From the IMG/VR virus record IMGVR_UViG_2713896768_000025: a DNA stretch of 4,110 bases, one strand, 5' to 3'. The DNA is from a virus (taxonomy: Duplodnaviria; Heunggongvirae; Uroviricota; Caudoviricetes). The notes under the pieces are model-generated. The model searched no databases. It had not been told where the DNA came from and saw only the letters and a program-made list of their open reading frames with translations. A program made the translations under genes and the position numbers. Positions 985 through 2,047 of this stretch are shown in pieces; position 1 is the first letter of the stretch; every line of letters starts with the position of its first letter.

Positions 985-1013
985 ATAATAATCAGATGAA
1001 AATCAATAATCAA
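985..1013 (-). promoter_or_regulatory. Candidate sigma70-like promoter for the tRNA cluster, overlapping the 3' end of the AraC-family gene
   Basis: On the minus strand: TTGATT (plus 1008-1013), 17-nt spacer, TATTAT (plus 985-990), about 10 nt upstream of the tRNA-Ile 5' end at 974. The region is AT-rich, so a chance match is quite possible. Confidence 0.25.
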
Positions 1014-1716
1014 GCCCTTGCCTGGATACATATCTGTCTGGCGGGAAGCCATAATAGCGGTGAAATACAGAAATAAAGTAGGACCTGCTTGAATAACCGC
1101 ATTTTTCTGCTACAGCCTGTCCATATCCATACCGGGAACATAACATATTTACAGCAACACGCATCCGCTCTTCCAGCAACAAGCGACTGAACATGCCCCC
1201 TTCATTTTTCAGTTTTGTCTTTAACAAACTCTCACTCATATGCAACTGTAGAGCAATCGCACCAAGCGTCCAGCTTGCTGATATATCTGTCTGAATTATC
1301 GCCCTGACTTTGACACTTATGCTGGATAAACATCCACTTAAAAACAATGACATCCGTTCATCTGTTTCAAACAGAGACAGGCAGGCCATCATAAGAAACA
1401 TATCCGTGGCCTCTCCGGAAAATCCCTGGCTGGTAATTAAAGCCGCAGCCAACGCAGGATTGTTGGGTTCCAGCAACAGGTAAAGCGGAATGTCAGTCAG
1501 ACGAGTCCTCGTCAGCTTATGCTGACTTTCCAGATATTGACTTACGACGGATTCGCTTATATCAACAATTTTAACTTTGCCATAATGCATAAGGAAAAGC
1601 TCCCTGATGCATTTGGTGGCCAGAACAACTGAGCCTGGCTTAAGTGACAACGTATCCTTTTCAAGAAAAATATTAATTGGGGAGCAAACCATGATAACTG
1701 AACAGACAACAGCCAT
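1003..1716 (-). CDS. AraC/XylS-family transcriptional regulator, AppY/GadX/YdeO-like (compare prophage-encoded Psr regulators)
   Basis: 237-aa ORF. The C-terminal ~100 aa carry the two-HTH AraC signature (…WTLGAIALQLHMSESLLKTKLKNEGGMFSRLLLEERMRVA…VAEKCGYSSRSYFISVFHRYYGFPPDRY). The N-terminus MAVVCSV…KCIREL…VKIVDISE resembles my recollection of E. coli AppY (MDYVCSV…KIRREL…LRIVDIDK). G+C is moderately low. A terminator hairpin and a candidate promoter lie upstream. Confidence 0.85.
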   Translation of the reverse strand: MAVVCSVIMVCSPINIFLEKDTLSLKPGSVVLATKCIRELFLMHYGKVKIVDISESVVSQYLESQHKLTRTRLTDIPLYLLLEPNNPALAAALITSQGFSGEATDMFLMMACLSLFETDERMSLFLSGCLSSISVKVRAIIQTDISASWTLGAIALQLHMSESLLKTKLKNEGGMFSRLLLEERMRVAVNMLCSRYGYGQAVAEKCGYSSRSYFISVFHRYYGFPPDRYVSRQGLDY

Positions 1717-1751
1717 TATAATTTTACTTTCATTAGCAATTGGTTAGCTCA

Positions 1752-1782
1752 ATTATAGCCCCAAAAGGTAAATTATCATCAA
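1752..1782 (-). promoter_or_regulatory. Candidate promoter for the AraC-family gene
   Basis: Perfect TATAAT on the minus strand (plus 1752-1757), about 36 nt upstream of the ATG at 1716. TTGATG lies 19 nt upstream (plus 1777-1782), TGATGA at 18 nt; the spacing is suboptimal. Confidence 0.3.
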
Positions 1783-1837
1783 CACATAAGCAAAGGACTG
1801 ACAGGTGTCGCCCCCCACCAGCCGCCCATTCACCACA

Positions 1838-1863
1838 AATAAAAAGCCTTCAGGACTGAAGGC
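1838..1863 (-). terminator. Rho-independent terminator after the small wHTH gene
   Basis: Stem GCCTTCA (1846-1852) / TGAAGGC (1857-1863), loop GGAC. On the minus strand it is followed by TTTTTATTT (complement of 1838-1845). The stop codon of the 65-aa ORF (1850-1852) lies inside the stem. Confidence 0.45.
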
Positions 1864-2047
1864 GTCTGTAACAACCGCACTGATAGTCTGCCAGACCCGC
1901 CATAACAAGCTGGGTCAGTATTAACTGGCAGCGTTCGCGTGAAAGGTAAGTATTCTGCGCAATCTCCCCGACTGTCGCCGGTTCGGTAACGCTTAATTCA
2001 TCAAACACAACTCTGGCGGTTTCTGTCATATCCTGCTGTTTCAGCAT
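1850..2047 (-). CDS. Small (65 aa) putative winged-helix/HTH DNA-binding protein, function unknown
   Basis: ORF MLKQQDMTETARVVFDELSVTEPATVGEIAQNTYLSRERCQLILTQLVMAGLADYQCGCYRRLQS. The segment TVGEIAQNTYLSRERCQLILTQLVMAGLA has the spacing of a helix-turn-helix recognition unit. ATG at 2047-2045 with a weak AAGGG upstream; followed by a terminator hairpin. Family assignment is inference only. Confidence 0.5.
   Translation of the reverse strand: MLKQQDMTETARVVFDELSVTEPATVGEIAQNTYLSRERCQLILTQLVMAGLADYQCGCYRRLQS

Follow-up and report, generated by a model that had tools for sequence, protein, structure and literature searches.

A probable psrB allele in the late-regulatory region of a putative lambdoid prophage of Escherichia coli

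Results

Overview of the locus

The window analysed here (the whole stretch of 4,110 nucleotides from the IMG/VR virus record IMGVR_UViG_2713896768_000025, Caudoviricetes; positions are counted from its first letter) has the make-up of a lambdoid prophage's late-regulatory region on its minus strand, and its AraC gene is, on sequence comparison, very probably an allele of psrB, which encodes a prophage-borne AraC/XylS activator already characterised in enterohaemorrhagic E. coli (EHEC). Followed in the direction of late transcription, the order is antiterminator gene Q, a divergent two-gene cassette, a candidate late promoter (pR') with a terminator, a small open reading frame (ORF) of 65 residues, a second terminator, a promoter-like site, the psrB allele, tRNA genes, an esterase gene and, beyond the window, the lysis genes. 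The coordinates are collected in Table 1.

Identity of the AraC gene

The RefSeq annotation of the identical DNA of E. coli DEC9B contains the same gene (WP_000301787.1). The 237-residue product exceeded the Pfam thresholds for HTH_AraC (PF00165; 50 bits, cutoff 26.6) and HTH_18 (PF12833; 37.8 bits, cutoff 33.6), and its best solved structure by sequence was the DNA-binding domain of GadX (3mkl; 2.1e-18); both matches place a double helix-turn-helix (HTH) of the AraC/XylS type at the C terminus. When compared with EDL933_RS10010 of strain EDL933 by tblastn and blastp, 235 of the 237 residues were identical (99.2%), the substitutions being A103V and V135A, and the two proteins had the same start, stop and length.

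PMC4763077 lists PCR primers by which EDL933_RS10010 could be tied to the published gene Z2104. On the EDL933 locus, its pairs for Z2100, Z2101, Z2102, Z2104 and Z2108 fall in order, in the DUF968, RusA, DUF1133, AraC and esterase genes; the two primers for Z2104 lie within EDL933_RS10010. In the window, the Z2104 forward primer matched exactly at 1437-1456 and the reverse primer matched at 1299-1318 with one mismatch; the published 158-bp amplicon is thus reproduced. Z2104 is psrB, which lies on O-island 57 (OI-57) and whose product is 90% identical to PsrA (PMC10877973; PMC8565820).

The surroundings of the two genes were also compared. In the resequenced EDL933 genome, the OI-57 order is a DUF1133-type protein, a 65-residue ORF, EDL933_RS10010 and tRNA-Ile. 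Upstream of the AraC gene, the EDL933 locus thus shares with the window the promoter region and the 65-residue ORF (96.9% identical), and downstream of it the tRNA. It differs in that the DUF1133-type protein stands directly upstream of this module, where the window has a Q of the PF06530 type and the divergent cassette, and in that TerB and DUF3927 genes come after its two tRNAs, whereas small RNA (sRNA) genes and the esterase directly follow the three tRNAs of the window.

The exact protein of the window was found on at least 997 contigs in public collections, and in a collection of 5.8 billion proteins the close homologues came from E. coli or Shigella wherever source names were given. PsrB is therefore a described regulator whose exact sequence is already in public databases, and the finding adds little that is new. 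The RefSeq label is just 'helix-turn-helix domain-containing protein', so that the name psrB improves the annotation of this prophage.

Relatives within the AraC/XylS family

Another relative, the cluster representative P0007 (90.3% identity), is encoded in the same slot: in a prophage with a PF06530-type Q, its gene has the small ORF on one side and the esterase gene on the other. The window protein is clearly a PsrB allele and not this 90% variant. We call P0007 just 'PsrA-like' because z1789, the psrA gene, could not be mapped in resequenced EDL933. The reviews place z1789 on OI-50/CP-933N (PMC10877973), and no AraC homologue was present at that site of the resequenced genome (98 kb; NZ_CP008957.1, 1610000-1708000). 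According to the paper on the sRNA EvrS, z1789 adjoins the esterase gene z1793, which could not be reconciled with an OI-50 site that has no AraC gene.

Identities over the full length were far lower with the presumed PatE (37%), GadW (34.6%), YdeO (30.7%) and AppY (29%); GadX was 41% identical in the C-terminal domain only. PatE (Z0321, OI-8) was equated with EDL933_RS01490 by location alone. In spite of identities of just 29-37%, PatE, GadW, YdeO and AppY resemble the window protein in having an N-terminal domain of about 130 residues, which starts with an M..CSV motif (common to the full-length relatives, not to GadX), followed by the C-terminal AraC double HTH. The best NCBIfam models were YdeO (2.9e-30, full length) and GadX (6.8e-25), and neither equivalog cutoff was reached (105.7 bits against 348 for YdeO; 87.8 bits against 500 for GadX). 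By these scores, the window protein is a paralogous relative of GadX, GadW, YdeO and AppY and an orthologue of none of them. AppY differs also in position, since it lies at the far end of DLP12 and not in the region from Q to the lysis genes where the psrB allele of the window lies. The first-pass annotation, which was made from the letters alone, had placed the protein in the GadX/YdeO/AppY/Psr group, and this placement was right: the best NCBIfam models, the best solved structure and the 99.2% identity to the Z2104 product all agree with it, and none of the closest homologues moved to another AraC subfamily, PsrB itself being the nearest.

Layout of the window and prophage context

Table 1. 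Features of the window, with the evidence for each
Positions	Strand	Feature	Evidence
1-192	minus	N-terminus of a SASA-family carbohydrate esterase (DUF1737); precedes lysis genes	Pfam DUF1737, E=2.3e-17
723-974	minus	tRNA cluster: tRNA(CAU), tRNA-Arg(UCG), tRNA-Arg(UCU)	ARAGORN and Rfam tRNA
1003-1716	minus	Probable psrB allele; encodes an AraC/XylS-type protein (237 aa) belonging to the Psr (prophage-encoded secretion regulator) group	ORF list, ATG start
1752-1779	minus	Predicted sigma-70 promoter-like site upstream of psrB (ATGATA, 16-nt spacer, TATAAT)	Best in window, 10/12 positions
1846-1863	minus	Predicted intrinsic terminator overlapping the small-ORF stop codon	Stem GCCTTCAGTCCTGAAGGC, then TTTTTATTTG
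1850-2047	minus	65-aa predicted winged-helix protein (phrog_331; NCBI 'TrmB family'; SfV orf47 homologue)	ORF list, ATG start
2177-2189	minus	Predicted terminator, hairpin and T-run, in tR'-like position upstream of the small ORF	Terminator scan
2195-2254	minus	Candidate late promoter (pR') and Q-loading region	Conservation patterns
2314-3694	plus	Divergent AT-rich two-gene cassette (ORFs 2314-3159 and 3146-3694)	GC 30-32%
3707-4063	minus	Antiterminator Q	Pfam PF06530, E=2.5e-45

According to the Pfam, ORF and tRNA calls, Q, the three tRNAs, the esterase N-terminus, the AraC gene and the 65-residue ORF are all on the minus strand, and the cassette lies between Q and the small ORF on the opposite strand. 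The co-orientation of both ORFs with the late genes, which had been claimed in the first reading of the sequence, is thereby confirmed, and the ORF list puts the two ORFs at precisely the limits named there. Q matched the solved Q21 structures 6jnx and 6p18 by sequence (E=2.6e-4) and is distantly related to Q21.

The genome counts given in this text are out of 5426 complete E. coli genomes. Four of them (JB2, F2_407_2_2, DEC9B and 7_33_46A) were 100% identical to the window save for an insertion of 81 bp relative to it, and most of the whole window was carried by only seven. In DEC9B, the full esterase gene is followed on the same strand by holin, lysozyme, terminase, capsid and portal genes, and the prophage has a complete set of replication, lysis and structural genes. 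It also encodes a PerC-family regulator; psr genes are associated with the Pch (PerC-like) regulators (PMC10877973), and this trait of the Psr family is found here too, in a lambdoid prophage that holds psrB.

Several further features of the region were recorded. The tRNA at 899-974 (minus) was called tRNA-Met with anticodon CAT by ARAGORN, and the RefSeq label on the identical gene is tRNA-Ile; the tRNA may be ileZ-like and decode Ile after lysidine modification. Two sRNAs were predicted by Rfam between the tRNAs and the esterase gene: STnc100 (minus strand, 405-613; 175.6 bits) and the anti-GcvB sRNA AgvB (plus strand, 345-404; 56.2 bits against a gathering threshold of 56). The EHEC sRNA EvrS was described at an equivalent location, adjoining the esterase gene z1793. 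Two Chi sites (GCTGGTGG) are present on the minus (late-gene) strand at 1815-1822 and 2131-2138, where 0.09 would be expected by chance, and most prophages of the alignment have kept the latter; PMC12315714 deals with lambdoid phages that are rich in Chi. At 3685-3702 (minus), a strong hairpin of terminator type, with a T-run, is found directly 3' of the Q stop codon and within the 3' end of the second cassette ORF on the other strand.

Promoters, terminators and late transcription

The sequence of the promoter-like site upstream of psrB is identical in OI-57 of EDL933. The terminator that overlaps the stop codon of the small ORF had a predicted energy of -11.2 kcal/mol (z = -2.8 against shuffled sequences). 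The terminator upstream of the small ORF was found in 8 of 8 aligned prophages, in some with an altered stem sequence that is still able to pair (the alignment was read by eye), and its counterpart in SfV, which stands between Q and orf47, has been annotated as a putative rho-independent terminator. Another hairpin, at 2138..2117, was terminator-like in the scan; it overlaps the conserved Chi site and was not taken as a terminator.

Upstream of the first terminator, the homology tracks the Q type: prophages with a PF06530-type Q (N196, L011 and L012 in our numbering) share the sequence up to about 2249-2254, whereas in prophages with other Q types the homology extends only to 2145 or 2195. Because this block is conserved only among the prophages with a PF06530-type Q and is replaced in the others, the late promoter and the Q-loading site are tentatively assigned to about 2195-2254, and the cassette appears to have been inserted between Q and the late promoter. 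A conserved hexamer read by hand (TATCGT/TATTGT/TATGCT) is not claimed as the late promoter.

Since the same strand carries the lysis and structural genes farther downstream, Q-modified transcription must cross the small ORF and psrB. In phage phiSTEC1575-Stx2k, an AraC gene of 92% identity is flanked by the small ORF on one side and by the tRNA and stx2k genes on the other, and stx genes are co-transcribed with the late genes (PMC8065619). We infer that psrB is expressed from its own promoter and also by Q read-through. In the lysogen, transcription of psrB would start at that promoter, with the two upstream terminators as insulation, and once the prophage is induced the Q-modified RNA polymerase heading to the lysis genes would read through it. 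Such a dual mode of expression had been proposed in the first-pass annotation, and the anatomy that it needs (the promoter-like site at 1779..1752 and the terminators at 2189..2177 and 1863..1846) is in place, while transcription itself is deduced from this arrangement.

The 65-residue ORF

The RefSeq annotation of DEC9B includes this gene as WP_000917737.1. The protein matched phrog_331 (6e-37), which is annotated as of unknown function, and reached no curated winged-helix family: the best Pfam match was TrmB (E=0.003; 17.8 bits, cutoff 25.6), NCBIfam gave no match, and the profile search against the PDB gave E of about 0.09 at best. In the AlphaFold2 model (predicted local distance difference test (pLDDT) 84), helices at residues 4-18, 26-33 and 37-49 are followed by strands at 53-56 and 59-62, which is the helix-helix-helix-beta-hairpin topology of a winged helix. 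Foldseek aligned the model with the winged-helix domains of IclR and MarR proteins (template-modelling (TM) score 0.75-0.81, root mean square deviation 1.3-1.5 A) and also with non-regulatory winged helices (N-terminal domains of methyltransferases, Z-alpha domains and SelB). The predicted structure therefore supports the winged-helix assignment that had been made from the letters.

Homologues of 63-74 residues were found in Escherichia, Salmonella, Klebsiella, Citrobacter and Buttiauxella with 77-98% identity, and the ratio of nonsynonymous to synonymous differences (pN/pS) was 0-0.43 against five homologues, as computed from small counts. The ORF shows signs of purifying selection and is taken as a real gene. 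Many lambdoid phages, among them SfV and Stx2 phages, have it as the first ORF beyond the terminator downstream of Q, and it was also found in phiP27 and in phages encoding Stx2a, Stx2c, Stx2d and Stx2k. SfV orf47 has about 92% protein identity to it and stands in the same place; the window differs from SfV in that the 1.4-kb divergent cassette separates Q from the module of the small ORF. The 'TrmB family' small protein of phiP27 is likewise a phrog_331 member.

The small ORF and the AraC gene had been viewed in the first reading as two regulators side by side, and a functional pair is not supported by their distribution. The small ORF was present in 2142 genomes and the pair of small ORF and AraC gene in 725; because the small ORF is about three times commoner, it is not regarded as the partner of PsrB. 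Elsewhere, the gene after the small ORF is a DNA methyltransferase gene (O104:H4), DUF3927 and IraM genes (another strain) or orf48 (SfV). The 65-residue gene is instead a separate conserved gene, which many lambdoid phages carry as the first ORF of their late transcript.

Whether it encodes a regulator of transcription is a separate matter. It is quite conceivable, and we lean only slightly away from it, that the product is a winged helix which binds proteins or nucleic acids in the lytic phase, or that translation of the ORF counts solely through its effect on late leader RNA, on the stability of that RNA or on its termination. The constant position directly after the Q-following terminator would fit such a role, as would the unassigned function of phrog_331, the lack of a Pfam family above threshold, a length of 65 residues that holds no dimerisation or sensor domain, and the non-regulatory winged helices among the Foldseek matches. 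Conservation of the protein across genera and the low pN/pS argue that the protein itself matters, and among its best matches in structure are DNA-binding domains from IclR and MarR regulators.

If psrB and the 65-residue gene lie inside the Q-dependent late transcript, in the slot that stx genes occupy in Stx phages, induction could be imagined to release a surge of PsrB by which acid resistance and type III secretion of the induced cells are reprogrammed, with the winged-helix protein acting as a late-phase regulator; we consider this unlikely.

The divergent cassette

The first ORF of the cassette (ORF1) belongs to an unannotated family of 308-309 residues that is found across Enterobacterales. 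The ORF1 product of the window has 281 residues, against 308 in the otherwise identical genomes and in all relatives; the difference is an in-frame deletion of 81 bp (27 residues) at about 3102, between two PVF repeats. This deletion allele may be inactive. Searches with PADLOC, Pfam and NCBIfam were uninformative for the cassette, as they were for the small ORF. The AlphaFold2 model of ORF1 (pLDDT 75) had lambda RexA (8twq; E=7.6e-8) as the top Foldseek match in the PDB, followed by RdgC (5.6e-5), with TM scores of just about 0.3, and profile comparison with lambda RexA gave no link (probability 0.2). The second ORF (ORF2) encodes a membrane protein of the multi-pass kind; three of its hydrophobic segments are clear and a fourth is possible, where RexB has four, and it matched RexB weakly in BLASTP (E=0.026 over 87 residues). 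To judge from these models and matches, the cassette may be a distant RexAB-like exclusion system.

The cassette occurs in the window (2314-3694, plus) and at three other loci in our collection, L001 (14314-15775), L016 and L019; its tail-to-tail arrangement with Q was noted at 3146-4063 in the window, at 5001-6831 in L016 and at 5001-6820 in L019. In Yersinia ruckeri and Klebsiella aerogenes, too, the cassette stands tail-to-tail with a PF06530-type Q, with ORF1 only 49-62% identical. The genomes at least 99% identical to the cassette/Q stretch numbered 217, as did those covering at least 80% of the query that spans Q and the cassette end, so that cassette and Q are linked in apparently all 217 E. 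coli genomes with this Q allele. This linkage suggests that Q and the cassette form a conserved three-gene module.

Next to the cassette in the K. aerogenes locus L019, at 4398-4694 (minus), a 98-residue AraC-type protein with the HTH only is encoded in place of the small winged-helix ORF. The first-pass annotation had raised the possibility that PsrB regulates the adjacent cassette, and a wider supposition would be that dedicated regulation of phage genes, above all of the cassette through the intergenic region 2048-2313, and not of host genes, is the task of the AraC protein, of the winged-helix protein or of the two together. The genes are physically close, the intergenic region must contain the cassette promoter, and the AraC-type protein of K. 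aerogenes adjoins the same cassette; this protein is no relative of PsrB, however (E=0.34). We regard dedicated control of the cassette as very unlikely, since psrB and the cassette each occur without the other. EDL933 OI-57, L011, L012 and the Stx2k phage carry psrB without the cassette, and O104:H4 carries the cassette with a DNA methyltransferase gene in the place of psrB. The cassette was seen only beside a Q of the PF06530 type (in the 217 genomes mentioned), whereas the AraC gene and the small ORF occur together in more than three times as many and the small ORF in still more, and only the seven genomes mentioned hold most of the window.

Cargo slots

The same module of small ORF and AraC gene follows three different Q types, and psrB most likely sits as cargo, a 'moron' gene, in one of the variable slots of this lambdoid prophage's late region. 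Two such slots were noted. The first, from Q to the conserved terminator, holds the cassette described here, an Rce1-like protease gene, or genes for Dcm, a DUF262 protein and a HEPN nuclease; the second, from the small ORF to the tRNAs, holds psrB, a DNA methyltransferase gene, or DUF3927 and IraM genes. The variable slots lie at 2429-3478 in L009, 3333-4023 in L010, 539-3400 in L013 and 3562-4380 in L011.

Discussion

What psrB would do in the host can be read from the literature on its EHEC counterpart. PsrB binds the promoters of hdeA (-132 to -45) and gadE, increases acid resistance and survival in the mouse stomach, and lowers type III secretion indirectly through raised GadE and YhiF (PMC10877973; PMC8565820). 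In accounts of the acid-resistance system AR2, PsrB and PatE are grouped with AppY as AraC regulators of prophages (PMC10057817), and PatE, GadW, GadX, YdeO and AppY are reported to control the regulon of gadE and the acid fitness island (PMC10877973; PMC10057817). By analogy, the C-terminal double HTH of the window protein would bind AT-rich DNA at the gadE and hdeA promoters of the host, and this binding would raise GadE and the glutamate-dependent acid-resistance regulon and, via GadE and YhiF, would indirectly lower type III secretion from the enterocyte-effacement locus (LEE).

Several points weigh against this reading. The allele carries the two substitutions given above, which are conservative. 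Deletion of psrB in EDL933 had little effect on secretion (PMC10877973), and native expression may therefore be low. The information on the targets of PsrB is second-hand, being taken from reviews in which Tree et al. 2011 and Yang et al. 2015 are summarised. As for the late transcript, the consensus scan detected no sigma-70 site on the minus strand in 2190-2313.

Less probable still than dedicated control of the cassette is that this copy of psrB is a decaying, non-functional remnant of a defective prophage: the deletion in the adjacent ORF1 and the slight phenotype of the EDL933 mutant would agree with decay, but the psrB ORF is intact, with the start and stop of the reference protein and just two conservative differences from it, its exact product recurs on the many contigs mentioned, and the DEC9B prophage with the identical DNA has its replication, lysis and structural genes in full.

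Conclusions

The AraC gene of the window is thus best read as an intact psrB allele. Slots with interchangeable cargo flank the small 65-residue gene on either side, and psrB would be the cargo of one of them. In strains with this allele, for example DEC9B, the prophage would provide an input to the gadE acid-resistance regulon of the host and, indirectly, to the LEE.

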